In this document: positions 1,438 to 37,889 of the stretch, in pieces
Numbering within the stretch: the first letter of the stretch is position 1
How the letters are laid out: each line of letters begins with the position of its first letter
From: a virus
IMG/VR virus record: IMGVR_UViG_3300021135_000003
DNA length: 64,000 nt
Direction: 5' to 3' (one strand)
Translations under genes and position numbers: made by a program
The notes under the pieces: model-generated
Databases searched by the model: none
Seen by the model: only the letters and a program-made list of their open reading frames with translations
Told to the model about the DNA's origin: nothing

Positions 1438-2076
1438 ATGGCTCATTACGTAAACAATAAAGACTTTCTCGCAGCAATTGTTGAGATGAAAACAAAAGTT
1501 AAACATGCTGAAGAGAATGGTTTACCTAAACCAGTTATTAGTAATTATATCGGTGAGTGTATTTTAAAAATCGCAACTCATTTATCATATAAACCAAACT
1601 TCATTGGATATTCATATCGCGATGATATGATTCTTGATGGGATTGAAAACTGTATTCAGTATATAGATAACTTTGATCCATCTAAATCAAGCAATCCTTT
1701 CGCATACTTTACGCAAATTATTTACTACGCATTTTTACGTAGGATAGCCAAAGAAAAGAAACAGTCTTATATTAAAGGTAAGTTAATTCAGAACATGCCT
1801 TTTGAAGCATTTGAATTACAAGATCAAGATGATGGTGGTGAGTTCCATAACGCATATCTTGAATTTATGCAGCAGAATAATACGTTTGATGATTTTATCG
1901 GCAGGAAAAAAGAAAAAGCTGCCAAGAAAAAAATGGAAAATACACTTAACGCATTTATAGGTGAAGAACAAAATGTCAATGACGAGCAGAGCAGTGAGGG
2001 AATGGATACGGGACTTGTCGGTATCGACTCGATCTTATCCACCGATTCGGTCGAGGAAGAAAAACAGAAAGACTAA
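1438..2076 (+). CDS. gp55: Late transcription sigma factor gp55
   Basis: HYVNNKDF…YIGECILKIA…LSYKPNF..YSYRDDMI.DGIENC…NPFAYFTQIIYYAFLRRI.KEKKQ is the gp55 signature. Confidence 0.95.
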   Translation: MAHYVNNKDFLAAIVEMKTKVKHAEENGLPKPVISNYIGECILKIATHLSYKPNFIGYSYRDDMILDGIENCIQYIDNFDPSKSSNPFAYFTQIIYYAFLRRIAKEKKQSYIKGKLIQNMPFEAFELQDQDDGGEFHNAYLEFMQQNNTFDDFIGRKKEKAAKKKMENTLNAFIGEEQNVNDEQSSEGMDTGLVGIDSILSTDSVEEEKQKD

Positions 2077-3145: not shown

Positions 3146-4197
3146 AAGTAGCAATTATTACTGATCAGCATTTCGGTGCTAGAAATGATAGTGTTGCGTT
3201 TTTAGATTTCTTCCAAAAATTCTATGACAATACTTTTTTTCCTACTCTTGATGCATCTGACATTGACACTGTTCTTATTCTTGGTGATACTTTTGATAGA
3301 CGCAAGTACGTCAATTTTTATGCTTTGGACAGAGCCAAGAAAATGTTCTTTGACAAATTGGAAGAACGTGGTATTACTGTTTATATGCTTGCTGGTAATC
3401 ATGACACCTATTATAAAAATACCAATGAAGTAAATTCTCCTGATTTGTTATTAAATGAATACAATAACATTGAAGTTATTGCTGAGCCAAAAACTATTAA
3501 CGTAAATGGCTTTGAGGTTTGTATGTTACCTTGGATCTGTCCTGAAAACTATCAACAAAGTATTGATGAAATAAAGAACACCACAGCTACGTTATGCATG
3601 GGGCATTTGGAGATTGCTGGGTTCGCAATGTATAGAGGAATGGAAAGTCATGAAGGATTTTCTGCAGAAATTTTCAACAAATTTGATTTGGTGTTTAGTG
3701 GTCATTATCATCATCGTAGTAACGACCGCAATATTTACTATTTGGGAAATCCGTACGAACTTACTTGGCAGGATTATAACGATCCCAGAGGATTCCACTT
3801 GTTCGACTTCTCTACAAGACAACTCGACTTCATTAAAAATCCTTATCGAATGTTCGAAAGACTCGAGTACACCGACAAGGAAACCGACCCGATCGACATT
3901 GATCAGTTAGAACTAAAAGAGAAATATGTAAAATTAGTTGTTTTGGAAAAAACTGATTTTTATAAATTTGACAAATTTATTCAGAAGTTATATAATAAAG
4001 GCTGCCACGAAATTAAAATTGTGGAAGACTTTTCTGAATTTGAAGCAGGTGAAATCAATGAGGAGATTAACTTAGAAGATACAGTTTCTGTTCTTTCTAA
4101 TTATATTGAATCAATTGAAACTGATGTTGATAAAGAAAAAGTTAAGTCATATATGCGTGGCTTATATACTGAGGCAATTAACATAGAGGTAGTCTAA
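3142..4197 (+). CDS. gp47: Recombination endonuclease subunit gp47 (Mre11/SbcD-like)
   Basis: TDQHFG, GDTFD, GNHD and SGHYH metallophosphoesterase motifs; upstream of gp46. Confidence 0.95.
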   Translation: MKVAIITDQHFGARNDSVAFLDFFQKFYDNTFFPTLDASDIDTVLILGDTFDRRKYVNFYALDRAKKMFFDKLEERGITVYMLAGNHDTYYKNTNEVNSPDLLLNEYNNIEVIAEPKTINVNGFEVCMLPWICPENYQQSIDEIKNTTATLCMGHLEIAGFAMYRGMESHEGFSAEIFNKFDLVFSGHYHHRSNDRNIYYLGNPYELTWQDYNDPRGFHLFDFSTRQLDFIKNPYRMFERLEYTDKETDPIDIDQLELKEKYVKLVVLEKTDFYKFDKFIQKLYNKGCHEIKIVEDFSEFEAGEINEEINLEDTVSVLSNYIESIETDVDKEKVKSYMRGLYTEAINIEVV

Positions 4198-11977: not shown

Positions 11978-12154
11978 ATGGAACATGTATATGTGCGTTG
12001 CCCAATGGATGGAACACAGAATCAAAAGTTTTGTGGTCTAGTTGAACACTATAAATCAAATGGAAATATTGATGAATGTCCACATCTCCAAGAGTGTAGT
12101 GAAATTAAAAATTATGTTATCAATGAAGAAGGAAAATTAAATGAAATTAAGTAA
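11978..12154 (+). CDS. 58-aa Cys-containing hypothetical protein (not in ORF track)
   Basis: AAGGAG SD; MEHVYVRCPMDGTQNQKFC…ECPHLQEC. Confidence 0.5.
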   Translation: MEHVYVRCPMDGTQNQKFCGLVEHYKSNGNIDECPHLQECSEIKNYVINEEGKLNEIK

Positions 12155-12797
12155 AGAAACTGTAGGTCTAATTAAGAACTTTGCTGGTATCAATAGCAAT
12201 TTGCTTTTGAAGGCTGGTAATAAATTGGCCACTATCTCGGCTCAGAAAAACGTAATGGCTGATGCAGTTGTTACTGAAACTTTCCCAGACTTTGGTATCT
12301 ATGACCTCAATGAGTTCCTCGGTGCCATGTCTTTGTTCGATGATCCAGAATTGACATTCAATGACAAGTGGGTTACTATTGAACAAGGTGGCAACAGTAT
12401 TAAATACTTTGCAGCTGAAGCAAGCGTATTGACTGCTCCACAAAAAGCGATTACCTTCCCAGATCCAGAAATTGAATTTAATATGAGCGCAAATATGCTC
12501 AGCATGATTCAACGTACTGCTTCTGTATTGCGTGCTTCTGATGTATCTATCGTTGGTGATGGTTCAACTATGAGCGTAGTTGTTGGTGATAAAAAGAATG
12601 CCACTGGTAACTCATATAACTCTACTGTTGGTTCAAGTGACAAGAAATTCAAAGTTAATTTGAAAGTAGAAAACCTAAAAATGATTCCAGGTGATTATGC
12701 TGTTAGTGTTTCCAGTAAGAAGATCTCTCGCTTCAAAGGTGCTGGTGATTTGGTTTATTATGTAGCAGTTGAGGCAGATTCATCATTCGAGTTTTAA
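12141..12797 (+). CDS. gp45: Sliding clamp gp45
   Basis: MKLSKET..LIKNFA.IN…FGIYDLNEFL…ENLKMIPGDY.V…YYVAVE. Confidence 0.95.
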   Translation: MKLSKETVGLIKNFAGINSNLLLKAGNKLATISAQKNVMADAVVTETFPDFGIYDLNEFLGAMSLFDDPELTFNDKWVTIEQGGNSIKYFAAEASVLTAPQKAITFPDPEIEFNMSANMLSMIQRTASVLRASDVSIVGDGSTMSVVVGDKKNATGNSYNSTVGSSDKKFKVNLKVENLKMIPGDYAVSVSSKKISRFKGAGDLVYYVAVEADSSFEF

Positions 12798-12798
12798 T

Positions 12799-14268
12799 AT
12801 GAAGAACATTATTGTTCTTGGTGGCGGAACAGCTGGGTTAATCTCTGCTATCACTTTAAAGAAAACTTTTCCCGATTATTCAATTAAAGTTATTGAATCC
12901 GATAACATTGGAATCATCGGTGTTGGAGAAGGATCAACTGAACATTGGAGACGATGGGTTGAATATTGTGGTTTAGACATTAGAAATTTAATTAGAGAAA
13001 CTGATGCTGCATTAAAGAAAGGTATCAAATTTGAAAACTGGAATGGTGATGGTAAAAGTTATTTCCACTCACTTGGTGGATTATGGTATCCTTACAATCA
13101 ACCAGTTAATGAAAATGAGTTTGTAAAATCTTTAATTATTTCAAATATTAAAACTGAAGATGTTTTAGTTGACACGAATTTAATTGATTCAAAATCTGGA
13201 ATTTTTAGTGTCAATCAATTTCATTTTAATACATTCAAGTTAAATGTTTATTTACATAAGGTTTGTGAAGAACGTGGCATTGAAGTAACAAATGATACAA
13301 TCTCCAATGTTACACTATCGCCTACTGGCGATGTTGCCTCTATTGTTGGAGAGAATGCTGAGTATTTTGCGGATTTCTTTATTGATAGTAGCGGATTTAA
13401 AAGGGTTATTGCTTCAGCAGTTGGAGCGAAGTTTATTTCCTATAAAAAATATCTTCCAATGAATCATGCATTAGCATTTCCAACTGATGATGTATCAGAT
13501 CTTAAACCATACACACTATCTCGTGCCCTCTCTTCTGGATGGAATTGGAGAATATCTACACAGGGTAGGTACGGTAATGGTTATGTTTTCTGTGATGACT
13601 TTATTGACTCAACAAAAGCCCATGATGAAGTTCAATCATTTTATACTGAACAAGTTAATGTCGCCAAAGATATTAGATTTGAAGCTGGTCGTGTAGATAA
13701 ATTTTGGATTAATAATGTAGTTTCTGTCGGTTTATCTGCATCATTTGTTGAACCTTTAGAAGCATCTAGTATCGGCAACTCAATATTGCAAGCATTTGGT
13801 ATATGCGAAATGTTAGGGGACTGGGTTGAAGACAGATCAGTATGCAACAAATACAATGATACCTTTACTAAGTGTTTTGACAATATAGTTGATTTTGTTC
13901 AGTTACATTATATCACTAAACGTAAAGATACTTTGTTTTGGCAAACATTACCAGAGATGATGACGCAGACTGATTTTATTAAAGATCATCTTGAACATTT
14001 CAAACGAAATATGCCATCCCAGCATTATTTTTCTGGTTTCTATAATATGTTTAATGCACCAAATTGGGCTCAGGTAATGGCTGGTCTTGATTTGTATGAA
14101 AAAGAACATATGAAATATAATTTGATTAATACTCATGGTAAGGGTATAATTGAAAACCAGTTGACTGAATATGATAAGTATCTTTCTGAATTGGAAACTG
14201 AGTCGTGGATTGAACATAAAGTTTTACTATCCCAAAATAATATTGTAGTAAAAATTGACCGTAATTAA
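12799..14268 (+). CDS. Flavin-dependent (tryptophan-type) halogenase
   Basis: GGGTAG FAD motif, IGVGEGS, K.GIKFENW with the catalytic-position Lys, FIDSSGF, WNWRI, FVEPLEASSI. Confidence 0.88.
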   Translation: MKNIIVLGGGTAGLISAITLKKTFPDYSIKVIESDNIGIIGVGEGSTEHWRRWVEYCGLDIRNLIRETDAALKKGIKFENWNGDGKSYFHSLGGLWYPYNQPVNENEFVKSLIISNIKTEDVLVDTNLIDSKSGIFSVNQFHFNTFKLNVYLHKVCEERGIEVTNDTISNVTLSPTGDVASIVGENAEYFADFFIDSSGFKRVIASAVGAKFISYKKYLPMNHALAFPTDDVSDLKPYTLSRALSSGWNWRISTQGRYGNGYVFCDDFIDSTKAHDEVQSFYTEQVNVAKDIRFEAGRVDKFWINNVVSVGLSASFVEPLEASSIGNSILQAFGICEMLGDWVEDRSVCNKYNDTFTKCFDNIVDFVQLHYITKRKDTLFWQTLPEMMTQTDFIKDHLEHFKRNMPSQHYFSGFYNMFNAPNWAQVMAGLDLYEKEHMKYNLINTHGKGIIENQLTEYDKYLSELETESWIEHKVLLSQNNIVVKIDRN

Positions 14269-14280
14269 ATAATGGAGTAA

Positions 14281-15237
14281 GTGATGATTGATTTTCGTGA
14301 TGACCAATTTCTTTGGGTAGAAAAATATCGCCCACAGAAAATTGATGACTGTGTTCTTCCTGAATCTTTGAAAGAAACTTTTAAGCAATATGTAACTCAG
14401 GGTGAACTACCTCATTTCCTTCTTTCTGGAACTGCAGGGGTGGGCAAAACTACCATTGCCAAAGCACTCTGTAATGAGATTGGTGCTGAATATATTATGC
14501 TTAATGGTTCAGATACTGGGGGTCATATTGATACCCTTAGAACTCAGATCAAGGGATTTGCTTCAACAGTATCCCTAACTGATTCACCAAAGATAGTTAT
14601 TATGGATGAGGCAGATTTTCTTCAGGCAAACTCTACTCAGCCAGCCTTGCGTGCATTTATTGAAGAGTTCTCCGCTAATTGTCGTTTCATCTTTACTTGT
14701 AATTTTAAGAATAAGATTTTAGAAGCGATTCATTCTCGTTGCGTTTGTATCGATTTTAAGATTGACGCAAAAGATAAACAAGTGATGTTAACTCAATTCT
14801 TTAAACGTGCAACGCAAATTCTTAAACAAGAGAATGTTGACTTTGATCAGAAAGTAGTTGCTGAACTAATTACTAAACACTTTCCAGATTATCGTAGAGT
14901 TTTAAACGAACTTCAGCGTTATAGTGTTTCAGGTAAGATTGATTCTGGTATTCTAGTTAATATGAGTCAGGAATCTTTCAAAGATCTAATTAAGATGATG
15001 AAAGAAAAAGATTTTACTAATGTGCGTAAATGGGTTGGTAAAAATTCTGATTCAGATACAGTTGCTCTGTTTCGTGAACTTTATGACACGTCAGTAACAT
15101 ATATGGTTCCAGAAAGTATTCCCTCATTGGTTTTGGTTCTTGCTGATTATCAATACAAAGCAGCATTCGTTGCTGATCATGAACTGAATATTATGGCAGC
15201 ATTGACTGAGATTATGGCCAACTGTAAATTCAAGTGA
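14281..15237 (+). CDS. gp44: Clamp loader large subunit gp44
   Basis: LWVEKYRP, GTAGVGKTT, DEAD, SRC motifs. Confidence 0.95.
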   Translation: MMIDFRDDQFLWVEKYRPQKIDDCVLPESLKETFKQYVTQGELPHFLLSGTAGVGKTTIAKALCNEIGAEYIMLNGSDTGGHIDTLRTQIKGFASTVSLTDSPKIVIMDEADFLQANSTQPALRAFIEEFSANCRFIFTCNFKNKILEAIHSRCVCIDFKIDAKDKQVMLTQFFKRATQILKQENVDFDQKVVAELITKHFPDYRRVLNELQRYSVSGKIDSGILVNMSQESFKDLIKMMKEKDFTNVRKWVGKNSDSDTVALFRELYDTSVTYMVPESIPSLVLVLADYQYKAAFVADHELNIMAALTEIMANCKFK

Positions 15238-23774: not shown

Positions 23775-24343
23775 TGTTTATATTTGACGTAGAAACTTTG
23801 GGTGTTGAATCTAATGCTGTTGTTTTATCGGCAGCATTGCTTCACTTTGACCCAGAGAAACGTCCAACCTATCAAGACTTGCTAGACAATGCGTGCTTTG
23901 TTAAGTTGAACGCAAAAGATCAAGCAAAACGTCTTGGTAGAACTGTTGATGTGAGAACACTAGAGTGGTGGGCAAACCAACACGAATATGTTCGTAGTGT
24001 TTCTTTTGATGCAAATTCAATAGATATGTATGCAGAAGATGCAATTAAAGAGTTACATAATTATATGAACAAATATATTAATGCAAATGGTCAAACTATG
24101 TGGGCAAGGGGTTCTCTTGATCAAATGGTAATTGATTCGCTTGCTAAAAAACTTGACATGCAACCTATTACTGGGTATAATATGTGGAGGGACGTTAGAA
24201 CTGCAGTTGATTTACTCAGTGGTGGAACTAATGGTTATTGTGAAGTGAATCATCCCTTATTTGAACGAGCGCAAGTTATTAAGCACCATCCTGTTCATGA
24301 CTGTGCTCTTGATGCTATGATGTTAATGTATGGAAAGAGTTAA
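23774..24343 (+). CDS. dexA: DEDDh 3'-5' exonuclease (DexA-like)
   Basis: FDVETLG, WARG..D, RDVRT, HHPVHDCALD. Confidence 0.85.
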   Translation: MFIFDVETLGVESNAVVLSAALLHFDPEKRPTYQDLLDNACFVKLNAKDQAKRLGRTVDVRTLEWWANQHEYVRSVSFDANSIDMYAEDAIKELHNYMNKYINANGQTMWARGSLDQMVIDSLAKKLDMQPITGYNMWRDVRTAVDLLSGGTNGYCEVNHPLFERAQVIKHHPVHDCALDAMMLMYGKS

Positions 24344-26829
24344 TGGAATTTTATACCTCAGTAAACCCTATCGGAGATCGAATCTTTGTTAGAGGTGTTG
24401 AGAATGGTAAACGCTATCAACGTAAGTTAGAGTTTAGTCCTACTCTTTATGTGACTGCCAAGAAACCCTCCAAGTGGAAGACACTGGAGGGAACATTCGT
24501 TGATGAGATTAATCCAGGCACAATCAAAGATACCAGAGAATTTATTAAACGCTATGATGGTGTTGAAGGATTCGCTGTATATGGAAACTCAAACTATGCG
24601 TATCAATACATAAGCGATAATTATCAGCATGATATCAATTGGGATATGGAACAGATTAAAGTGTTCACGATTGATATTGAAACTTCAACAGAGAATGGTT
24701 TCCCTGATATTAAATCAGCCAATGAAGAAATTCTTCTTATCACAGTTAAAGAACTTCAGACAAAACGTATTATTACTTTTGGAAGTAAAGCATATGTCAA
24801 TCCACGTGAAGATGTAATCTATGTTAACTGTAAGAATGAACAAAACCTACTAACCCAATTCCTAGAATTTTGGACTAAGAGCCATCCAGATGTTATCACT
24901 GGTTGGAATACTGACTTCTTTGATATGCCATATCTTATCCGTAGGATTGAGCGTGAACTTGGTGATGGCGAATCTAATAAGATGAGTCCATGGGGATATG
25001 TTAATGAACGAAAGACTTTCATTAAAGGTAATGAAGAGATTCACTACGATATCGTTGGGATTGCTCAACTAGATTATCTTGAACTCTATAAGAAATATAC
25101 ATATTCTAAACAGGAAAGTTATCGTTTGGATTATATTGCTGGTGAAGAACTTGGTGACAAGAAGAAAGTAAATCCAGGAGATTCATTTAAAGATTTCTAT
25201 ACTAATCACTGGCAGCAATTCGTTGATTATAATATTCATGACGTAGAGTTGGTTGATAAGTTAGAAGACAAGATGCGTCTTATCGAATTGCATTTGACCA
25301 TGGCTTATAATGCCAAGATTAATTTCGAGGATGTTTATTCGCAGGTTCGCATGTGGGATACGATTATCTATAATCATCTACGTAAAAAAGGTATTGTTGT
25401 TCCTGCCAAGAGTCACTCAGGCAAAGATGCTCAATTTGAGGGTGCATATGTTAAAGATCCAATTATTGGTCTTCATAAATGGATGGCTTCTTTTGACTTG
25501 AACTCATTGTATCCGCATTTGATTATGCAGTATAACATTAGTCCTGAAACTTTGACATCGGAAAAGATTAGCGTTACTGTTGATAAACTTTTGAATCAAG
25601 AAATTGATACCACATATGTTAAGCAACGAGATCTTGCTTTGACTGCCAATGGATGGACTTATACTAAAGAGTTTAAAGGTTTCATGCCAGAGTTAATGGA
25701 ACAGATGTATAAAAATCGTTCTAAGTTCAAGAAACAAATGCTTGCCATCCAACAAGAGTATGAAAAAGATAAGTCTAAGAAACAATTGCTGAAAGATATT
25801 TCTCGTTTGAATAATCTGCAGATGGCTATGAAGATTGCTTTGAACTCTGCTTATGGTGCAATGGGTAATCAGTATTTCCGTTACTTTGATATTCGTATGG
25901 CTGAGGGTATTACTACTTCTGGTCAGTTGTCTATTCGTTGGATGGCCAACAAGTTAAATGCCTTCATGAATAAAACATTGAAGACTGAAGGTAAAGATTA
26001 TGTAGTTGCAATTGATACTGATTCAATCTACCTTACTCTTGAAACATTAGTTGAACAAACTTGCGCTGGCAAAACTGATGAACAGAAAATTAAATTCATG
26101 GATAAAATCTGTGAAGATGTTTTCCAACCATTCATTGATTCAGGTTACCAAGAACTAGCAGACTATATGAATGCGTATAGTCAGAAGATGCAGATGAAGC
26201 GTGAGGTTCTAGCTGACAAAGGTATCTGGACTGCCAAGAAACGATATATTCTTAATGTGCATAATTCAGAGGGTGTTCAATATGAGAAACCTAAAATTAA
26301 AGTTATGGGTCTTGAAATGGTCAAGTCCTCTACTCCTGCAGTTATTCGTGATAAATTGCGAGATTCGATTGAGGTTATTCTTAAAGGAAATCAATCACAT
26401 TTACAGAACTACATATTAGAGTATCGTAAAGAGTTTGAGAAACTTCCTGTTGAAGAGATTGCGTTTCCTCGTGGTGTTAATGGTATGAAACAATACGCTG
26501 GTTCACCTATCTATTCTAAGGGAACACCAATTCATGTTCGTGGTGCTTTATTGTTTAATCACTATACTAAGAAGATGGGTCTTGATAAAAAGTATCAACC
26601 AATTCGTGATGGTGATAAAATTCGATTTGTTTATGTTCGCAAACCAAATCCATTCCAAGAAGATGTTATTGCATTCAGTCAAGAGTTACCACCAGAGTTT
26701 GAATTGAACTCCTACATAGATTATGATAAACAATTTGAAAAGGTATTTCTCGATGCCCTACAAATTATTATTGGTTCGCTTGGTTGGAATACATCAGAAC
26801 AAAGTTCATTAGAGGATTTCTTTGGATGA
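24343..26829 (+). CDS. gp43: Family B DNA polymerase gp43
   Basis: DIET exonuclease, SFDLNSLYPH, KIALNSAYG, DTDS, KKRY; C-terminal clamp-binding SSLEDFFG. Confidence 0.97.
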   Translation: MEFYTSVNPIGDRIFVRGVENGKRYQRKLEFSPTLYVTAKKPSKWKTLEGTFVDEINPGTIKDTREFIKRYDGVEGFAVYGNSNYAYQYISDNYQHDINWDMEQIKVFTIDIETSTENGFPDIKSANEEILLITVKELQTKRIITFGSKAYVNPREDVIYVNCKNEQNLLTQFLEFWTKSHPDVITGWNTDFFDMPYLIRRIERELGDGESNKMSPWGYVNERKTFIKGNEEIHYDIVGIAQLDYLELYKKYTYSKQESYRLDYIAGEELGDKKKVNPGDSFKDFYTNHWQQFVDYNIHDVELVDKLEDKMRLIELHLTMAYNAKINFEDVYSQVRMWDTIIYNHLRKKGIVVPAKSHSGKDAQFEGAYVKDPIIGLHKWMASFDLNSLYPHLIMQYNISPETLTSEKISVTVDKLLNQEIDTTYVKQRDLALTANGWTYTKEFKGFMPELMEQMYKNRSKFKKQMLAIQQEYEKDKSKKQLLKDISRLNNLQMAMKIALNSAYGAMGNQYFRYFDIRMAEGITTSGQLSIRWMANKLNAFMNKTLKTEGKDYVVAIDTDSIYLTLETLVEQTCAGKTDEQKIKFMDKICEDVFQPFIDSGYQELADYMNAYSQKMQMKREVLADKGIWTAKKRYILNVHNSEGVQYEKPKIKVMGLEMVKSSTPAVIRDKLRDSIEVILKGNQSHLQNYILEYRKEFEKLPVEEIAFPRGVNGMKQYAGSPIYSKGTPIHVRGALLFNHYTKKMGLDKKYQPIRDGDKIRFVYVRKPNPFQEDVIAFSQELPPEFELNSYIDYDKQFEKVFLDALQIIIGSLGWNTSEQSSLEDFFG

Positions 26830-27437
26830 GATATATTTTAAATAAAGTAAAAAATTTTCAGCCAGTTCTTTCCGTAGATAATATTTTTACCAAAGAAGAA
26901 TTGGATAAAATTAATTCACAACTATCTTCTGTTAATACGACAGCAGCAATTGCTGGGTGGGGTTCATCCATTACTACAGATGAAGAAATGAATGCAGCTG
27001 TTTTACATAGTCATCAAGCAAGAAAATCTAATGTATATTGGTTAGATAATTCAGAGTATGATTGGATTTATGATAAACTTCAGATTGCTATTAATCATGT
27101 AAATCTAACAAACTTTAATAAAGTTTTATACTCAATTGAATCATTACAGTATACAGAATATGATTCTAAGTATAATGGTTTTTATTCTTCTCATGCTGAT
27201 GCTTATGAAGATAATCCACCTCTGAATCGATCGCTATCGTTTTCTCTTCAAATATCAAAACCTGAAGATTATACTGGAGGAGATGTAAAAATTTATTATC
27301 AGGATAAAATTTTTACAGCAAATAAGGCATATGGTACAGTTACATTTTTTGATTCAAAACTATTGCATGAAGTAACACCTGTAGTTTCTGGGTTTAGAAA
27401 AAGTTTAGTTGGTTGGATTATTGGTCCAAGAATATGA
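26826..27437 (+). CDS. 2OG-Fe(II) oxygenase (PKHD/prolyl-hydroxylase-like)
   Basis: HAD…YTGG…HEVTPV..G.RKSLVGW. Confidence 0.85.
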   Translation: MRYILNKVKNFQPVLSVDNIFTKEELDKINSQLSSVNTTAAIAGWGSSITTDEEMNAAVLHSHQARKSNVYWLDNSEYDWIYDKLQIAINHVNLTNFNKVLYSIESLQYTEYDSKYNGFYSSHADAYEDNPPLNRSLSFSLQISKPEDYTGGDVKIYYQDKIFTANKAYGTVTFFDSKLLHEVTPVVSGFRKSLVGWIIGPRI

Positions 27438-27982
27438 ACAATATTAGGATTATTAAAACTGGGATTAATGTTTCAAAGATTTTGAAACAACTAAAAGATC
27501 ATCCTGACGATTGGATGGCTCAACGAAATATCGAGGGTGCTCAATCTTTAATCGATAGAGGATATGATAATATCCCAGTTGGTAATCTTCAGTTGGTAAT
27601 CGGTGCTGTAGAAAAAGCTGAAGACTTTGTAGGAGACAGCGAGATTTGCGTACCAACTCCAGCAATCAAACATCACACAGAGATAGTAGGATTTCTAAAA
27701 AGAAATTTTAAGAAATTCAGTAGATGCGGTTTCCTTTCTCTTGCTTCAGGTGAACACGTTGGGCTACATATTGATGAGGGAACTTATTATCTTACAAGAG
27801 ATCGTTATCATTTATCCATTCAAGGAAAATATAGATATTTTGTAGGCGACGAATCAGTTATTGTTGAACCTGGAACTTTACTTTGGTTCAATAACAAACT
27901 TATGCACGGGACTGAAAACATTGGTGATTGCACTCGGATTACTTTTGTATTTGATGTTCCACATTCTAAACAAAATCCATAG
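27434..27982 (+). CDS. Asp/Asn beta-hydroxylase-like 2OG oxygenase
   Basis: HIDEG.YY…RYHL…WFNNK..HG..N…RI..VFD. Confidence 0.8.
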   Translation: MNNIRIIKTGINVSKILKQLKDHPDDWMAQRNIEGAQSLIDRGYDNIPVGNLQLVIGAVEKAEDFVGDSEICVPTPAIKHHTEIVGFLKRNFKKFSRCGFLSLASGEHVGLHIDEGTYYLTRDRYHLSIQGKYRYFVGDESVIVEPGTLLWFNNKLMHGTENIGDCTRITFVFDVPHSKQNP

Positions 27983-30996: not shown

Positions 30997-32313
30997 ATGG
31001 TAAAAGTAATTGTAGCTGAACAGAAACACAATTGTGAAGATCTTCTTGGTAAGTTTGTTGACGAATCACATTATGATCATCTTATCGAAGAAGATACTGA
31101 TGTTTATATGCCACCACAATTTGGTGAAGATCCAATCTCAGAGAAACGAATTGTATTAAAGTTTAGGAAAAACTATTTTAGTAAAGAACAACAAGATGCC
31201 GCATATGTCGGACTTAGAGAAGCAGCGATTCGCACAGAGAATCGTGGACTTGCTTCTGGTATCAAAGATGGCATTCTTGCCACAACTGAAGGTCGCGAGT
31301 GGGTCACAAACTACCAACAGGAAATGATGGATGCGTTGCTAAAGAATCGAAACTCTGCTCTTGATGAAGAAGATGTTATTGATGTTATTCGTGCCAAGTA
31401 TCCTACTGAAACTGATAAGCGTATGGCAGGTGGTAGTGGTAAAAACAACGTATGGGTTATCTCACGTTTCCGTGGAACTAAGTTTGATTTTGAAGCATGG
31501 CTAGATACTATCAAACCACTTGGTCGTCAGAATCGTGCTGAGGCATGTGAAGATGTTATGGAAATGATTAGTACCACTACCTATGGTACTGCAGTTAATT
31601 CTGGTATCGCTGGTTGGTTCGATCGTTATCCTCGCATTCCTTATGGTCGTGCCACTTCCTATACTCGTGACAACTTTGATAAGTTTGTAATGTCATATCC
31701 ATTCCTGCAGAATCTTGCTGAAGGATTTAAAAATCTTTTACCTCAACGCTATGCTGCACAAATGAAAGCAGCAAACAAACTAGATCCAAGGTTCTTAGTT
31801 CCAGGAACACCATTCACAACAGTAACTGTTAATAAAACATTTAGAACTGCGGCACATAGAGATGCTGGTGATTTGAATGAGGGTTTATCTAATCTGTTAA
31901 CATTATCCAATGATGGTAATTACACTGGTGGATATTTGATTGCTCCTGAGTATCGAATTGCAGTTAATCCACGTCCAGGAGATTTGCTTCTAATCAATAA
32001 TCACGAAGTTATGCATGGCAATACACCTATTGTTTGCGCAGAAGGTTCTGAGCGTATATCATTGGTTGTGTATTTCCGTGAGAAAATGTTAGAACTTGGT
32101 TCTTTTGAATATGAAGACTGTCGTTATAATTTTGTTGAACATCGTAGACGTAATCACGAGCATCCAATGTGGCAAAAACTTTGGAATGGTGTATCAGAAT
32201 CTATGTGGACTAGTCAAGAATGGTATGATTACTGCGAAGAAAAACTTGGTCGTGAGGAATTAATGAAATATCATCCAGAAGCAAATTCTTCTTCACTTGA
32301 GGATTTCTTTTAA
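30997..32313 (+). CDS. TET/JBP-family 2OG-Fe(II) nucleic-acid base dioxygenase
   Basis: FTTVTVN..FRTAAHRDAGD (HxD), GGYL..PE, GDLLL…HGNT (distal His), RISLVVYFRE (2OG-binding Arg). Confidence 0.85.
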   Translation: MVKVIVAEQKHNCEDLLGKFVDESHYDHLIEEDTDVYMPPQFGEDPISEKRIVLKFRKNYFSKEQQDAAYVGLREAAIRTENRGLASGIKDGILATTEGREWVTNYQQEMMDALLKNRNSALDEEDVIDVIRAKYPTETDKRMAGGSGKNNVWVISRFRGTKFDFEAWLDTIKPLGRQNRAEACEDVMEMISTTTYGTAVNSGIAGWFDRYPRIPYGRATSYTRDNFDKFVMSYPFLQNLAEGFKNLLPQRYAAQMKAANKLDPRFLVPGTPFTTVTVNKTFRTAAHRDAGDLNEGLSNLLTLSNDGNYTGGYLIAPEYRIAVNPRPGDLLLINNHEVMHGNTPIVCAEGSERISLVVYFREKMLELGSFEYEDCRYNFVEHRRRNHEHPMWQKLWNGVSESMWTSQEWYDYCEEKLGREELMKYHPEANSSSLEDFF

Positions 32314-33017
32314 TGTGTAGCGTTATTGGTGCTTTGATTCAGAATCCTACTGAAAAGGATTTTGAATCTATCCGTAAAGTATTTCTTGAGTCAAAGATTC
32401 GAGGAATGCACGCAACTGGTTTATCTTATATTAAAGATAATAAGATTATTACATTTAAAGAAGCAGTTCCTGCAGATAAATTTATTCATTTAGATAATTT
32501 AGAGGAGATGGTCAATGACGATGGTAATCTTTACCTTATTGGTCACTGTAGATATTCTACTAGCGATTTATTGTATAATCAGCCGATAGCAAGCGAAACC
32601 CATTCTATTGTTCATAATGGAGTTATCACTCAAGAACTTCCAGAGAACTGGAGTAAGATATTTCATTATCCTTGTGAAACAAAGAATGATTCTGAATTAG
32701 TTTTACATTCTGATAATGCTCTTGGTGAATATCCAGATGCATCTATGGCAGTTTGTGAGTTGTCACTAAAAAAAGAACTTACTGTTTTTAGAAATGGTAA
32801 ACGTCCATTATATTTGACTTCTTTAGTAAATGGAGTTATAATTACTTCTACTGCAGATATTCCTAAACGTGCAGGTATTAGAATGCCAGCAGTAGAAGTG
32901 CCAATGAATACTTACCTCACGTTTGATTCAAATATGACAATGAATGTTAATCTTGTTAAGACTAACAAACCAGATTTACAAAAGGTAAACTATGAGACTG
33001 AAGAAATATCCAACTGA
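32313..33017 (+). CDS. Class II (Ntn) glutamine amidotransferase
   Basis: N-terminal Cys2 (MCSVIG), RG.HATG, GHCRYST, NQP, HNGVI, NDSE. Confidence 0.88.
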   Translation: MCSVIGALIQNPTEKDFESIRKVFLESKIRGMHATGLSYIKDNKIITFKEAVPADKFIHLDNLEEMVNDDGNLYLIGHCRYSTSDLLYNQPIASETHSIVHNGVITQELPENWSKIFHYPCETKNDSELVLHSDNALGEYPDASMAVCELSLKKELTVFRNGKRPLYLTSLVNGVIITSTADIPKRAGIRMPAVEVPMNTYLTFDSNMTMNVNLVKTNKPDLQKVNYETEEISN

Positions 33018-33873
33018 TAAATTTACTTACGGAATGGAGATAGAGTGGGGTGATGTGCCTCGCTCTTTTTCAATTCCAGAACATCTCGGAACTTGGGAAC
33101 ACTCAGAACGAGATATTATTAACTTAAGAGAGCCATATCAATATGTCTGCGCTGACCCACTTGGTGAATCTCCTCCAGTCGGTGGGGAAATTAATACTAA
33201 ACCGACTAAGACTTGGGAAGAGCAGGTTGATCGCTACTTTGAACTCAAACAGTTATTTGAGAAGGAAGGACACCCACCTACTGTTGGTGCTACTGCTCAT
33301 ACTCATATTCATTGCCGTGTACCGAATCTCCGAAATGATATCAATGCTCTGAAGCGTTTGACAAAGTATATTAAAGAAAACCAACACCAAGCAGTTGAAC
33401 ACGTCTATGGTTACTTTGAACATAATCAAATGAAAGGTGCCAAAGGCGCAAAAATGTATTTGAAGTTTGATGGTGGTCGAACTCTGCCTGACTATATGGC
33501 TGATAACATTATTAATCTAGCGACTGACTTTGATTCATTCATTAAGATGCACGCTGCAGGTAAAGATGGAGTATCAATGGGTCGCCCATTCCGCTACGCT
33601 ATTAATATGTACGCACTGAAGCATATCGATACGGTAGAGTTTAGATTGTTCCGTGGTACAATGGATCGTACGGAACTTGAATCGTGTTTCCGATTTGTTC
33701 AAGACTTTCTTGATGCTGCGTTGAATACTGGTGAATCAGTAGTACAATTAATTTCAAATAATAATTATAAATTCCCTCCAATGATTTGGGATCTTCATCA
33801 GTTTATTGGTTGGGAGAAAACAAAACATCCAGAAGATCGTGGAGAAAAAGTAAGAACATATGTTGAAGTATAA
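32992..33873 (+). CDS. Putative amidoligase (glutamine synthetase/GCS2-like COOH-NH2 ligase)
   Basis: TYGMEIEW (ExE), GGEINT.P, HIH, RYAIN, TVEFRLF. Confidence 0.78.
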   Translation: MRLKKYPTDKFTYGMEIEWGDVPRSFSIPEHLGTWEHSERDIINLREPYQYVCADPLGESPPVGGEINTKPTKTWEEQVDRYFELKQLFEKEGHPPTVGATAHTHIHCRVPNLRNDINALKRLTKYIKENQHQAVEHVYGYFEHNQMKGAKGAKMYLKFDGGRTLPDYMADNIINLATDFDSFIKMHAAGKDGVSMGRPFRYAINMYALKHIDTVEFRLFRGTMDRTELESCFRFVQDFLDAALNTGESVVQLISNNNYKFPPMIWDLHQFIGWEKTKHPEDRGEKVRTYVEV

Positions 33874-34366
33874 AGTAATAGAAGATTGTGTATCAAGAGA
33901 TTTGCAAAACAAATATTTGGAGATCTCAGAAGGTATACATTGGACCTATAATAAAACTTGTATACATCCTTTAGATATTCCAATTCAGAATGAAACTACA
34001 TTTGATGTTGGACAACTAACATGTAGAGTTCCAGAACACGATTATAATTTGTTCCTCCCTCTTCTAGATCATTTTGAACAATACTCTAAAATTAATCGCA
34101 TAAAATATAATTTGTTATGGAGATGTTCTGAAACAAATAATAGACATACAAGTTTACATAAAGATGGTGATGACCAATGTATGAGTGCAGTATATTATGT
34201 TAATGATTCTGATGGAGATACCATCATAATTGATGGTGATGATGAATATAGAATTAAACCAAAGAAGGGATCTATTCTAATATTTCCTGCGCATCTAATT
34301 CATGCCTCATCTAACCCATCAAATGCGTTTGAGAGAATTTGTATAAATTTGGTAGTAACAAAATGA
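33860..34366 (+). CDS. 2OG-Fe(II) oxygenase
   Basis: HKD…YYVNDSDGDT…PKKG…F…HAS…RICIN. Confidence 0.8.
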   Translation: MLKYKVIEDCVSRDLQNKYLEISEGIHWTYNKTCIHPLDIPIQNETTFDVGQLTCRVPEHDYNLFLPLLDHFEQYSKINRIKYNLLWRCSETNNRHTSLHKDGDDQCMSAVYYVNDSDGDTIIIDGDDEYRIKPKKGSILIFPAHLIHASSNPSNAFERICINLVVTK

Positions 34367-34914
34367 AATTACTAAATTGCCCACGTGCGGATTTTATCGC
34401 AGCAATAACTACAGACAAAGAAGATAACTTTGCTAAGACGTTTGTTGCCAAAGCAGATATGCAAGACCAATGGGATTATTGTATTGGCGCATTCGATGGT
34501 AATGAATTAACTGCTGCAATTATCACCACAATATCAAAGACCAAACCTCATGTTGCAAACCTTCAACTGTTACATACATTTGCAAAACATAGAGGTAAAG
34601 GTTCAGCTCGATTACTTTGTGAAGATTCATTGAAGCGAGCAAGAGCCACTGGTGCTACATACTTCAGAGTATCTTCCGAGAAGACGGCAGTTGGTTTCTA
34701 TGAACGATTGGGTTTTAAGTTTTGGGGTACTCAAAAGAGTGGTTGCCAATTATCCATATTCAGGATAAATGGAGATAATTATTCAGAAGCTGATTACGAC
34801 TACTCCGATACAATTATCAACAAGGCTGTTAATCGCAAAGGTAAAGGTGGCTGTGTAACTCTGTTTAGTCTTGCAGAGGATCAGAAACAACTTGACTTTC
34901 ATTCATTTTTGTAG
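34363..34914 (+). CDS. GNAT acetyltransferase
   Basis: HRGKGSA acetyl-CoA motif; AVGFYERLGF. Confidence 0.85.
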   Translation: MKLLNCPRADFIAAITTDKEDNFAKTFVAKADMQDQWDYCIGAFDGNELTAAIITTISKTKPHVANLQLLHTFAKHRGKGSARLLCEDSLKRARATGATYFRVSSEKTAVGFYERLGFKFWGTQKSGCQLSIFRINGDNYSEADYDYSDTIINKAVNRKGKGGCVTLFSLAEDQKQLDFHSFL

Positions 34915-34920
34915 TATAAT
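34892..34920 (+). promoter_or_regulatory. Sigma70-type promoter inside the modification cluster
   Basis: TTGACT-N17-TATAAT. Confidence 0.65.
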
Positions 34921-34939
34921 ATAATTTTGGGAACACACT

Positions 34940-35260
34940 ATGACACACTTGAGAGAAGAAAATTTGGCAGTTGTTACAAGAAGAATTGCTGAGGATGCAT
35001 GGGTAACTAATCTTGATGGAACAAAATCAAGAGCAGTATCTTGGTGCAAATGCTGTAGGGTTCATAAACCTTTAAGTGCATTTTACTTAAAATCAAAGAG
35101 TACTAGAAAACATAAAAATGATGTTCGAGGATATTGTTGCATTTGTTTTGATGAACAAAACAAAAAAGCAAAAGAAATTCGTGAAGAACGAAATGCAGTC
35201 AAACAATTGAATATTCTGATCAATGAATTAAAGATAGAATTTGAGACTGCGAATCAGTAA
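34940..35260 (+). CDS. Zn-finger hypothetical protein
   Basis: CKCC..HKPLSAFY…YCCIC, resembling the Zn domain of endo VII/HNH-type proteins. Confidence 0.55.
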   Translation: MTHLREENLAVVTRRIAEDAWVTNLDGTKSRAVSWCKCCRVHKPLSAFYLKSKSTRKHKNDVRGYCCICFDEQNKKAKEIREERNAVKQLNILINELKIEFETANQ

Positions 35261-35823
35261 TGAATTTCGAACATATTTTTCCATCAGTTATAGGTTATGA
35301 GATTAATAAAGATTTAACAGATAACATTTTGCTTATTGCAAAAGAATATCTTTCTGATGATTCTAAGATAACCTATGAATGGAATTATAAAAACACATAT
35401 GGTAATATCTTAATAGATGATAAATTAAATTTTGTATATGAGAAGATAGCTGAACTATCAAATACATATTTGATAACCTCTAATATTAAACCACCAGAAA
35501 AATTAGAAATACAACTTTTCTTTAGTGAAATATACGGAAACGACACTCATGTTAAACACTCTCATCCAGGAGCATTACTTTCTGGATTATTTTATTTGAC
35601 TGTTCCAGATGATGCTGCTCCAATTATTTTTTATGATACGAGCCCACATTATGATTATATTCCGTATAATGCATTAAATCCATCTGATGACCGTAGGCAA
35701 TATATTATAAATCCAAAAGAAGGTATGGTTCTAATATGGAATTCTTGGTACCAGCATGAAGTTCCAAAATCAAATAGTATTAAACCAAGAATTACAGCAG
35801 TGTTTAATGTTGCTAGAAAATAA
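35260..35823 (+). CDS. 2OG-Fe(II) oxygenase (TIGR02466-like)
   Basis: HSHPGALLSGLFY…P.EG…SW..HEVP…RI…FN. Confidence 0.8.
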   Translation: MNFEHIFPSVIGYEINKDLTDNILLIAKEYLSDDSKITYEWNYKNTYGNILIDDKLNFVYEKIAELSNTYLITSNIKPPEKLEIQLFFSEIYGNDTHVKHSHPGALLSGLFYLTVPDDAAPIIFYDTSPHYDYIPYNALNPSDDRRQYIINPKEGMVLIWNSWYQHEVPKSNSIKPRITAVFNVARK

Positions 35824-36839
35824 TGGATTACAGACAACCTCAAAATAATAGAGAAGCGTTCATTCGCTGGTACGCATGGTCATTGAAGTATGATGACTGT
35901 GATCCAGCTGTTTGGTGCACGAACTATCTCAATAAGCGTTACGAGCATAATGATGAACAACGTCTTTGGCTCGCTTGGCTTTACGGTAACACTTATCAAC
36001 TACCAACTGCGTGGGTATTGATGAATGAATTTCCTGATTATGAATTAGCAACAGTTGATAGAATTACGCAGTGGAACTCAACAAATTATAAACGATTACG
36101 TTACCAAACTGATACCAAGTGGAACAAGGGGCATCTCCCTGCCATGTTTGCTTCATATCAGCAATTTATTGGTAACAAAACTCAACGAGAAAGAATGGAA
36201 GGGTTTTATGGAGACAATGAAGAGACAAACTTTGATAACCTGTGGGAAAGCGTTAAGTCTGGGCTGCATAAGTTTGGTCGCTATTCCACTTGGTTTTATC
36301 TTCAGCATCTTAAGCATACCGCTGGTATTCTTATCAGCCCTACTAGTCTCATGCTGGATGATTATGATGGCTCTCGGTCTCATCGTAATGGATTATTATG
36401 CGCCCTCGGCAGACATTACGATATGGATAGAAAACTCACTGAACAAGAGTATGCAACTCTTGAGTCAGAAGCCAGATCTATTCTCATCGAAACCAAAGAT
36501 AGATTCCCAGATTTGGAAACGCAAATAGATTTTTTTACAATGGAAACCTGTCTGTGTTCGTTTAAGAAAATCTTTAGAGCACATCATGGACGTTACCTTG
36601 GTTACTACTTAGATCGTCAGGCTGAAGAGATTATTAAAGCAGAGGGTGATGGTTGGTATGGTATTGATTGGGATGTTCTGTGGCAAGCACGTGAAGAAAC
36701 TATTGACTTACGTCTAGATCACAAAAGAGGAATCGATAAAGAAAAGTTTCCTGCATTTATAAATTCAGGTAAAATAGAAAACTTGGATTGGATGTTTGAT
36801 GATGAAGAACCTATGTTAATTGGATTGGAGAATTTTTAA
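35823..36839 (+). CDS. Amino acid:DNA transferase (alpha-glutamyl/putrescinyl-thymine pyrophosphorylase family)
   Basis: WL..LYG.TY, RYQTD.KW.KG, HhH-like FGRYSTWFYLQ.L, ET.LC.FKK and RY.GYY motifs. Confidence 0.75.
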   Translation: MDYRQPQNNREAFIRWYAWSLKYDDCDPAVWCTNYLNKRYEHNDEQRLWLAWLYGNTYQLPTAWVLMNEFPDYELATVDRITQWNSTNYKRLRYQTDTKWNKGHLPAMFASYQQFIGNKTQRERMEGFYGDNEETNFDNLWESVKSGLHKFGRYSTWFYLQHLKHTAGILISPTSLMLDDYDGSRSHRNGLLCALGRHYDMDRKLTEQEYATLESEARSILIETKDRFPDLETQIDFFTMETCLCSFKKIFRAHHGRYLGYYLDRQAEEIIKAEGDGWYGIDWDVLWQAREETIDLRLDHKRGIDKEKFPAFINSGKIENLDWMFDDEEPMLIGLENF

Positions 36840-37291
36840 TGGCTATTACTAAAGGTCAAATGACTGGACTTACTGGTGCTATGTATGAAGATATGAATCC
36901 TGCTAGTGTTTCAATTTCAAATACTGGTGCTATTACTGGAACTATTATTGGAGCAGCAGGTAGTACGATTACTACTGGAACAGGAATAAGTTCTATCTCA
37001 ATTCGAACAAGTGCTGATGAAATCTTTGATAGATATTCTTTAAATGAGTTTCTTGTTGAGCATCGTGTTCAAGAATTTGAACTTATGAAACTCCGTGAAA
37101 CCACTGTTGACTATGCTGATGTTATTAAAAATAATCTAGCAAAGACTGCTTCTAAAGAAATTATCAAGAAAATGACCTTCACAAAGAAACATGAGATTGA
37201 TAGTGATACTCATTCATTCCGTGGACGTGTTTGGGTATTTACGAAAGATGAACTAAACAAAATGATTGAGGAGATCAGAAATGGCATTTGA
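36839..37291 (+). CDS. Hypothetical protein with Thr/Gly-rich N-terminus
   Basis: Coupled ORF inside the cluster. Confidence 0.55.
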   Translation: MAITKGQMTGLTGAMYEDMNPASVSISNTGAITGTIIGAAGSTITTGTGISSISIRTSADEIFDRYSLNEFLVEHRVQEFELMKLRETTVDYADVIKNNLAKTASKEIIKKMTFTKKHEIDSDTHSFRGRVWVFTKDELNKMIEEIRNGI

Positions 37292-37889
37292 AGAACGTAT
37301 CGGCGCAACTGATATTATTACATTCGAAAGAACTACCATGGAAACAAAAGAACGAAAGATAGTTGCTGTCGGTGGATCTCCTGGAACTGGAAAGACTACG
37401 TTATTCCGTAAATATATGGAAGATAAACAGTGGATCGGAGTTGAGCCAGCAAAATTAGTATCAACAATGTATAATACCGAACGAGATCTTTATATCCTTG
37501 GTAAATACGAAGAGGGTGAAACCTTTGCTGGAACCGATCGCCTTTCTATGGCTGTTCAACCACCTCTTCAAGAATGGGTCGCTTCCCATAACTGCAATAT
37601 CCTTTTCGAGGGAGATCGGGTTTTCAACCAATCATTCCTAGAGTTCTGCATGGGTCTCCCAAATACCAAGCTAGAAGTGGTATTTCTAAAGGCTCCCAAA
37701 GATATTTTAGAACAACGCTATAAAGATCGTGGATCTGACCAGTCAGAACAATTCCTAAGAGGAAGAGAAACTAAATATAGTAACTTGATGTCTAATTTTG
37801 AACTTATGCCATATATTACTGAGTTTGTAAACACTAACTTAGAGGAGCAGGGGAAGGTTCTTGCATTTTTGGAGAAGCAGTTTAGTTAA
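37281..37889 (+). CDS. P-loop kinase, 5-hydroxymethyluracil DNA kinase-like
   Basis: GGSPGTGKTT; LGKY…FAGTDRLSM; FEGDR; R…RGS.Q; near the amino acid:DNA transferase. Confidence 0.72.
   Translation: MAFEERIGATDIITFERTTMETKERKIVAVGGSPGTGKTTLFRKYMEDKQWIGVEPAKLVSTMYNTERDLYILGKYEEGETFAGTDRLSMAVQPPLQEWVASHNCNILFEGDRVFNQSFLEFCMGLPNTKLEVVFLKAPKDILEQRYKDRGSDQSEQFLRGRETKYSNLMSNFELMPYITEFVNTNLEEQGKVLAFLEKQFS

Follow-up and report, generated by a model that had tools for sequence, protein, structure and literature searches.

Why should an enzyme that modifies bases in DNA end in the same peptide as the DNA polymerase? The question is raised by a 64,000-nucleotide stretch of viral DNA (IMG/VR record IMGVR_UViG_3300021135_000003; the whole stretch is called the window here), which is the replication module of a T4-like phage. 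It includes a gene (30997..32313, + strand) for a 2-oxoglutarate (2OG)-Fe(II) DNA dioxygenase of the TET/JBP (5mYOX) type, a protein of 438 amino acids (Pfam Tet_JBP, 1.5e-24) named TET in what follows. The TET ends in N-S-S-S-L-E-D-F-F followed by the stop codon (32284..32313, +). The family-B DNA polymerase gp43 (24343..26829, +; 828 amino acids; Pfam DNA_pol_B 1.3e-28, DNA_pol_B_exo1 1e-24) ends in E-Q-S-S-L-E-D-F-F-G and a stop codon, and its tail S-S-L-E-D-F-F-G (26803..26829, +) is the counterpart in position of the clamp-binding end of T4 gp43. We consider it likely that the TET tail is a motif that binds the sliding clamp gp45 and so tethers thymine hypermodification to the clamps present on replicated DNA.

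A first-pass annotation of this DNA, made from the sequence alone, had pointed out that the two proteins end in the same S-S-L-E-D-F-F and that the codons used are partly different. Translation confirmed the identity at 7/7 residues, and the codons indeed differ, with AGT vs TCT at the first Ser and TTA vs CTT at the Leu, the last four codons being the same. This heptapeptide is the longest peptide common to the last 9 residues of any pair among the 89 non-overlapping open reading frames (ORFs) of the + strand. When the sequences were shuffled 500 times the longest common peptide had 3-6 residues and a length of 7 was never reached, and the composition-based expectation that another ORF matches the polymerase tail is about 7e-7. 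The shared end is real and is not due to chance.

The partial difference in codons had been taken as a sign of selection at the protein level, and the orthologues bear this out. A scan of IMG/VR revealed 289 stretches encoding relatives of the TET, 80 of which were kept as loci, with TETs that are 62-99% identical. The homologues do keep the C-terminal motif: a tail of the form [ST]-L-[ED]-x-F-F is found in 61 of the 64 distinct TET orthologues, at times with one additional Gly or Ala. The Leu is invariant in the 61 tailed orthologues, yet five codons are used for it, and the final Phe is also present in 61/61, encoded by TTC in 31 and by TTT in 30. The other positions are nearly as constant (preceding Phe 59/61, Glu/Asp 61/61, Ser/Thr 60/61). 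The residue between the Glu and the Phe is variable, as is a linker of 4-6 residues that follows a conserved H-P-x-x. Because the residues of the tail are kept through synonymous codon change while the linker varies, the alignments indicate that the TET tail is a short linear motif whose amino acid sequence is maintained by purifying selection.

The tail is also present in more distant relatives. In Stenotrophomonas phage DLP_6 the TET (48% identity) ends in T-L-G-D-F-F-V and the polymerase in T-L-D-S-F-F-A, and in phage C48C1 (TET 41% identity) the corresponding ends are S-L-E-E-F-F-V and T-L-E-D-F-F-G. Most of the near-full-length TET relatives among the representatives of 50%-identity clusters, drawn from 1.8 billion proteins, are tailed; the TET/JBP proteins of about 300 amino acids that come from other phage types and belong to the same representative set are untailed. 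The TET of Caulobacter phage Cr30 (L002:9001-10329) has only a degenerate end, A-T-L-F.

The distribution of the tail across phages follows that of the clamp, in that the tail co-occurs with gp45. Untailed TETs were found in Synechococcus phage S-CBWM1, which gave neither a family-B polymerase match nor a gp45 match, in Pelagibacter podophage HTVC112P, where the gene adjoins a ParB gene, and in Nonlabens siphophage P12024L, the last two giving no family-B polymerase match. In a cyanophage-like contig, which has the exonuclease domain of a family-A polymerase, the TET is untailed as well (for this contig gp45 was outside the search). In the T4-like Methylophilales phage Melnitz the TET belongs to another clade (25% identity, adjoining a C5-methylase) and ends in N-L-N-D-F-L-G-E, and the polymerase ends in T-L-E-D-F-F-G. 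In one contig, L118, both tails deviate alike, to M-D-D-L-F-G in the polymerase and L-E-E-M-F-G in the TET; L118 is the single case of such co-variation, the contigs of the distant tailed relatives P0017, P0029 and P0042 being too short to show the polymerase. A different kind of end was noticed in P12024L (L120), in which the protein encoded after the TET ends in Q-L-E-I-F and a DNA methyltransferase in Q-Q-T-L-F (2095-2853, 2855-3490); these ends resemble the bacterial beta-clamp-binding motif. Many of the short (about 300 amino acids) phage TETs end in G-D-P-L-Y, T-P-L-F or R-L-F forms. Docking on the host clamp may be the counterpart, in phages that have no clamp of their own, of the arrangement proposed here.

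To what other proteins has the tail spread? Same-strand ORFs of at least 80 amino acids from the 80 loci and the window were clustered into families, 61 of which had at least 4 members, and enrichment was counted for the strict motif form only. The tail was found in only 5 of the 61 families, namely the polymerase, the TET, the TET-associated glycosyltransferase (TAGT, PF20691), the amino-acid:DNA transferase (ADDT) and a GT1 glycosyltransferase, where 0.025 tailed families are expected by chance from the internal frequency of the motif. It is carried by all members of the polymerase (36/36) and TAGT (8/8) families and by 69/79 of the TETs, and the GT1 glycosyltransferase family ends in [DN]-L-E-S-L-F-G. 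The gp41 helicase, UvsX, the amidotransferase, the cupin and 50-odd other families in this comparison are untailed. The motif is thus restricted to the polymerase and to DNA-modifying enzymes.

The ADDT of the window (35823..36839, +; 338 amino acids; Pfam ADDT 3.8e-22) has, as the first-pass annotation had stated, the end G-L-E-N-F before its stop codon (36822..36839, +); an acidic linker precedes it, and from its sequence this end is a candidate clamp-binding variant. All 24 of the 24 homologues in the related loci end in G-L-[ED]-x-F, and so do 117/120 of the database matches listed (all 79-93% identical), with at most one residue added; conservation of the motif at the C-termini of the transferases, like that in the TETs, is therefore found. 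The GNAT acetyltransferase (34339..34914, +; 191 amino acids; Pfam Acetyltransf_10 1.5e-11) ends in the hydrophobic tail L-D-F-H-S-F-L, also as reported before. Its 20 homologues have ends such as D-L-N-S-F-L or K-L-D-G-F, and the GNATs of three loci (L075-L077) end in [ST]-L-E-E-F-L-V. We tentatively regard the D-F-H-S-F-L end of the window GNAT as a weaker variant of the clamp type. Tailed Dam-type N6-adenine methylases are found in C48C1 and in locus L051; among the matches listed for the latter enzyme 8/120 are tailed, and the tail is therefore a feature of a small subclade. Most Dam-type relatives of the L051 enzyme (P0284-P0395) end in G-[IT]-E-G-L-[VA]-x-L-[ND], another conserved hydrophobic-acidic C-terminal peptide. 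In contig L118 the ADDT has no tail, and it adjoins a protein of 282 amino acids without a recorded Pfam match (L118:12797-13645) that ends in L-S-L-D-E-F-L; this protein, flagged by its tail alone, is a candidate new DNA-acting enzyme.

A genome-wide scan was carried out on the complete relatives G001 (164.7 kb, gp45 98% identical) and G004, which have about 230 ORFs each, and in both of them the strict motif was found in the polymerase and the TET only. A loose motif, with any small residue before the Leu and a single aromatic residue, was rejected, as it also matches the neck protein, the baseplate hub and rubrerythrin. A conserved end of the kinase (L-A-F-L-E-K-Q-F type), considered as a fourth tail, was not accepted as one, since it resembles the final helix of the fold. 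The neck or head-tail adaptor protein (PHROG 211) ends in A-P-L-[ED]-F-F-L-G in the two relatives (L100:2325-3290, - strand, in G001; L109:15553-16290, - strand, in G004), which may be either a coincidence that limits the specificity of the motif or a link without a present explanation. Taken together, the comparisons of orthologues and of families support a tail that is a selected and portable C-terminal motif of the clamp type.

The partner of this motif is suggested by T4. In that phage gp43, gp55, gp33 and an internal loop of the ligase bind a hydrophobic patch of gp45 through L-D-F-L-F-type motifs (PMC6212786, PMC2988020), and the clamp-binding tails are interchangeable between proteins (PMC2988020). 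The statement of the first-pass annotation that T4 and RB69 proteins dock on the clamp through C-terminal peptides agrees with these reports and with the ends of the T4 proteins themselves: gp43 of T4 ends in A-S-L-D-F-L-F-G, to which the polymerase tail of the window aligns position for position, and T4 gp55 has S-L-D-F-L-Y four residues before its end. The ORF for the late sigma factor gp55 in the window (1438..2076; PHROG late sigma factor 1.8e-61) includes a T-L-N-A-F-I motif (1942..1959, +), likely the gp55 clamp-binding epitope of this lineage, which is kept in G001 and G004 (as P-L-D-N-F-I in G004). With the gp43 tail and the gp55 motif, the clamp motif of the lineage can therefore be read from two independent established ligands. 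In the window the gp55 motif lies about 40 residues before the end, and what comes after it is a long acidic tail, which is not the same even in the close relatives G001 and G004. A 109-amino-acid ORF of G001 (L094:17508-17837, - strand; no PHROG match) was considered as gp33 and was not retained; it has G-L-D-Q-F-I ten residues before its end, and its size and motif fit a gp33-like clamp-binding coactivator.

The cognate clamp gp45 (12141..12797, +; 218 amino acids; Pfam gp45-slide_C 2.8e-10) and the large subunit of the clamp loader, gp44 (14281..15237, +; Pfam Gp44_lid 4.4e-18, AAA 4.9e-17), are both encoded by the same phage as the tailed TET, and gp45 matches the clamps of T4 (1CZD, E 7.6e-24) and RB69 (1B77/1B8H, E 1e-21) over the full length. 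When the TET tail is compared with the PCNA-interacting peptide (PIP) box, Q-x-x-[LIM]-x-x-[FY]-[FY], the position three residues ahead of the Leu is occupied in the orthologues by Ala, Ser or Lys and never by Gln; therefore the tail is not a strict PIP box, though it is like one in its working. A PIP box has Gln as its first residue and usually lies inside the protein or at its N-terminus.

Structure predictions are consistent with docking on gp45. The AlphaFold2 (AF2) model of the TET has an overall predicted local distance difference test (pLDDT) value of 89.5, with a mean of 54 for residues 431-438, which extend beyond the last helices, and it places the tail (432-438) outside the fold on a flexible, variable linker. 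A complex was modeled from three gp45 chains and TET residues 379-438. The tail docked on the clamp with a score of 0.62, compared with 0.07 for the best of 3 controls; the 0.62 mark was reached by 58/80 solved complexes and by 2/110 mismatched pairs. Between runs 92% or more of the contacts are the same, and the partner pLDDT is at least 60. In the model only TET residues 428-438 touch the clamp, contacts being made by L434, F437 and F438, and the gp45 residues contacted belong to one subunit (32, 35-39, 101-107, 175, 193-195 and 207-212, where 101-107 is the interdomain connector by alignment with T4). The prediction, which the first-pass annotation had proposed as a way to check its claim, supports binding of the tail to gp45 rather than showing it.

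What does the enzyme that carries the tail act upon? The match of the TET to PF12851 (Tet_JBP) scores 86.5 bits against a cut-off of 34.9. The iron triad H287, D289 and H340 is invariant and the 2OG-binding Arg, R353, is nearly invariant (at least 90%) in a 28-sequence alignment (A3). The top Foldseek matches of the model in the PDB are CcTet, TET2, NgTET1 and CMD1, with E values of 3e-11 to 6e-9, those of the first three lying at 3e-11 to 1e-9. Neither a C5-cytosine methylase (PF00145) nor a ThyA-type gene (PF00303) was found in the four complete relatives, and Ploopntkinase3, ADDT and Tet_JBP all lie within 30997-37889. Because these two genes were not found in the relatives and the kinase and ADDT are present in the cluster, we infer that the substrate is most likely thymine in DNA, giving 5-hydroxymethyluracil (5hmU). 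Lee et al. reportedly described in 2018 that phages ViI, M6, SP10 and phiW-14 hypermodify thymidine by means of a 5-hydroxymethyl-2'-deoxyuridine (5-hmdU) DNA kinase and an amino-acid:DNA transferase. The 5-hmdU of those phages is incorporated into DNA in nucleotide form, the nucleotide being produced by a ThyA-type hydroxymethylase. Their pathways share the kinase (Ploopntkinase3) and ADDT families with the cluster in the window, where the kinase is a P-loop nucleotide kinase 3 of the 5-hmdU DNA kinase type (37266..37889, +; Pfam Ploopntkinase3 8.6e-07) for which no clamp tail is claimed. Unlike those phages, the four complete relatives of the window phage have no ThyA-type gene, and a TET/JBP enzyme acting at the DNA level is therefore the likely source of 5hmU.

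The phage thymine dioxygenases known as 5mYOX are alike in being TET/JBP enzymes that oxidize T in DNA after replication (PMC13229309). They include ParB-dependent and ParB-independent subclasses, one of them needing a partner associated with DNA, a ParB homologue, and having a C-terminal extension, and neither gp45 nor tails of the present kind are mentioned in that report (PMC13229309). ParB proteins form a family of CTP-dependent clamps, and the arrangement of ParB beside TET is seen in HTVC112P. The TET of the window differs from those enzymes in having a longer, T4-like form (438 amino acids with an N-terminal domain of about 190) and no ParB neighbor, and in carrying a replicative-clamp motif instead.

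The course of events that we propose is as follows. The clamp loader gp44/62 would load gp45 at the fork, on primer ends, and clamps would remain on the replicated DNA. The polymerase would take one pocket of the clamp, leaving free the other pockets and the clamps that stay behind on finished DNA. The TET would dock by its tail, inserting the Leu and the two Phe residues into the hydrophobic pocket of one gp45 subunit, and would oxidize T to 5hmU along the new duplex. The kinase would then phosphorylate 5hmU, ADDT, held by its own conserved G-L-E-x-F tail, would add an amino acid, and the GNAT and the oxygenases would tailor the product. Docking on gp45 is predicted by the complex model; binding in the cell and coupling to replication we infer. 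The first-pass annotation had proposed that the base-modifying enzymes ride the gp45 clamp, and this gains computational support from the conserved tail, from its unrelated carriers and from the docking model of the TET; among the other enzymes named there, the tail of ADDT is well conserved and the case of the GNAT is weaker.

What tethering would bring is probably a faster, fuller and more processive modification of nascent DNA. The earlier proposal saw the benefit in keeping the oxidase away from host DNA, which is possible and is not required by anything observed here; a benefit in speed, completeness and processivity is no less likely. The phage clamp loader places gp45 on any primed or nicked template that it meets. 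A more far-reaching version, which we hold to be doubtful, is that the whole hypermodification pathway is assembled on the three-pocket clamp as a toolbelt, with the dioxygenase, the transferase and the tailoring enzymes, each bearing a polymerase-type tail of its own, acting in turn or together on the clamps that the fork leaves behind. If it is true, thymine conversion would proceed processively along the nascent DNA, and the tail would be a general sequence flag for DNA-acting enzymes of unknown family in T4-like phages.

Several observations weigh against tethering through the tail or limit what can be drawn from it. In one clade (L074 and L078-L081) the TET has no tail and ends at query residue 426; therefore the tail is dispensable for that TET. 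In the same clade the TAGT, which starts 19 bases downstream, ends in T-L-E-E-F-F (L079:5219-6523 for the TET and L079:6524-7321 for the TAGT), and one tail may serve both proteins of the pair or may have moved between neighbors. Loose forms of the motif also end structural proteins such as the neck protein and the baseplate hub, and therefore only the strict form is diagnostic; the assignment of the GNAT becomes less secure in consequence and, to a smaller extent, so does that of ADDT. For the complex model the alignment of the clamp was shallow, the gp45 homologues listed all being 93-100% identical, and the predictor may owe the score to prior knowledge of the solved gp45-peptide complexes (1B8H, 6DRT). 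No polymerase-type tail was found in the sequence of the T4 alpha-glucosyltransferase, which binds gp45 without one. Moreover, gp45 binding is reportedly not the main determinant of the share of alpha-glucosylation in T4 (PMC13216743), and clamp binding therefore need not affect modification levels much.

These observations have to be set beside what else the tail could be. A similarity without shared function, which could arise by chance or composition, as a relic of recombination at gene ends or as a part of each fold, would agree with the loose hydrophobic-acidic ends of structural proteins and with the identity of the last four codons in the TET and gp43 tails. We think it very improbable, as none of the 500 shuffles reached a 7-mer, the motif is conserved through synonymous change in orthologues down to about 41% identity, 5/61 families are tailed where 0.025 would be expected, and the tail is a low-confidence end of the model outside the fold, on carriers whose folds are unrelated. 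If the tail is functional, its partner could still be another common one (a replisome protein, a modification scaffold or a localization factor), the polymerase tail being bifunctional. The clade in which the TAGT is tailed next to an untailed TET would fit an enzyme-enzyme complex with one anchor. Nevertheless, no partner other than gp45 is documented for motifs of this class in T4-type phages (PMC6212786, PMC2988020), the phages that gave no match to a family-B polymerase or to gp45 have untailed TETs, and the model docks the tail on gp45 well above the controls, all of which make a different partner quite unlikely. Lastly, the tail could bind gp45 for the sake of regulation, with the enzymes competing with the polymerase, gp55 and gp33 for pockets and so timing the change to late transcription or holding the fork back until modification of the DNA is complete. 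In favor of this, the tail falls into one motif class with that of the polymerase and with the gp55 motif, a clamp offers no more than three pockets, and the T4 tails are interchangeable (PMC2988020). We hold regulation to be unlikely, since the carriers of the tail are many unrelated enzymes that catalyze DNA modification, with no dedicated regulator among them, and a role in a toolbelt is simpler. Tethering of the modifying enzymes to gp45 is the reading that we retain.

The surroundings of the TET gene are as follows. Profile searches of the window identified a UvsW-type helicase, gp55, gp47, gp46, gp45, gp44, gp43, UvsX and gp41. Immediately 3' of gp41 is the modification cluster, in the order TET/JBP, glutamine amidotransferase, an unknown protein of 293 amino acids, 2OG oxygenase, GNAT, second 2OG oxygenase, ADDT, an unknown protein of 150 amino acids and P-loop nucleotide kinase 3. 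The TAA stop codon of the TET overlaps the ATG of the amidotransferase, a class II enzyme (T-A-A-T-G, 32311-32315), which suggests translational coupling through the cluster. Within and next to the replication and modification cluster, the window encodes, in addition to the TET, three small oxygenases of the 2OG-Fe(II) type and a cupin that resembles Asp/Asn beta-hydroxylases (26784-27982, 33860-34366, 35260-35823), none of which is tailed. A flavoprotein of the tryptophan halogenase family (Pfam 4.7e-98) is located at 12769-14268 between gp45 and gp44, inside the clamp/clamp-loader operon.

The epitopes of T4 and RB69 gp43, gp55, gp33 and ligase (1B8H, 6DRT) are like the present tail in being short hydrophobic-acidic peptides on a variable linker, located at the C-terminus or close to it. 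They are located on replication and transcription proteins, whereas the carriers described here are base-modifying enzymes, and the consensus of this lineage is L-E-x-F-F as opposed to L-D-F-L-F in T4. The closest functional parallel is the T4 alpha-glucosyltransferase, which is also a post-replicative DNA-modifying enzyme of a T4-type phage and binds the sliding clamp (Sommer et al. 2004, as cited in PMC13216743, where the pull-down was repeated); replication-linked modification has been proposed for it. Unlike that case, the present one involves a defined motif that is portable and shared by an entire set of enzymes. In eukaryotes DNMT1 is recruited to PCNA by a PIP box, so that a DNA-modifying enzyme is coupled to replication by a short linear motif. 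Tethering to the replicative clamp by such a motif is common to both systems, which differ in that PCNA is another member of the clamp family and that DNMT1 carries out maintenance methylation and not hypermodification. The motif class, its pocket on gp45 and the binding of alpha-glucosyltransferase to gp45 were already known. No description of clamp tails on TET/JBP, TAGT or ADDT enzymes was found in the literature searched, and what is new is the presence of a polymerase-type tail on the TET/JBP dioxygenases and on several other base-modifying families of T4-like phages.

The finding bears on how post-replicative hypermodifying enzymes cover the whole phage genome fast enough to beat the host nucleases. 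For T4-like phages a portable clamp tail would be a concrete answer, namely that the clamp of the replisome itself delivers the enzymes. It would also provide a rule for annotation, by which an unknown protein with the polymerase tail at its end, when encoded by a T4-like phage, probably is an enzyme that acts on DNA, the 282-amino-acid protein of L118 being an example. Finally, it suggests that oxidation by TET-type enzymes may be made processive in vitro by the addition of the clamp and its loader.

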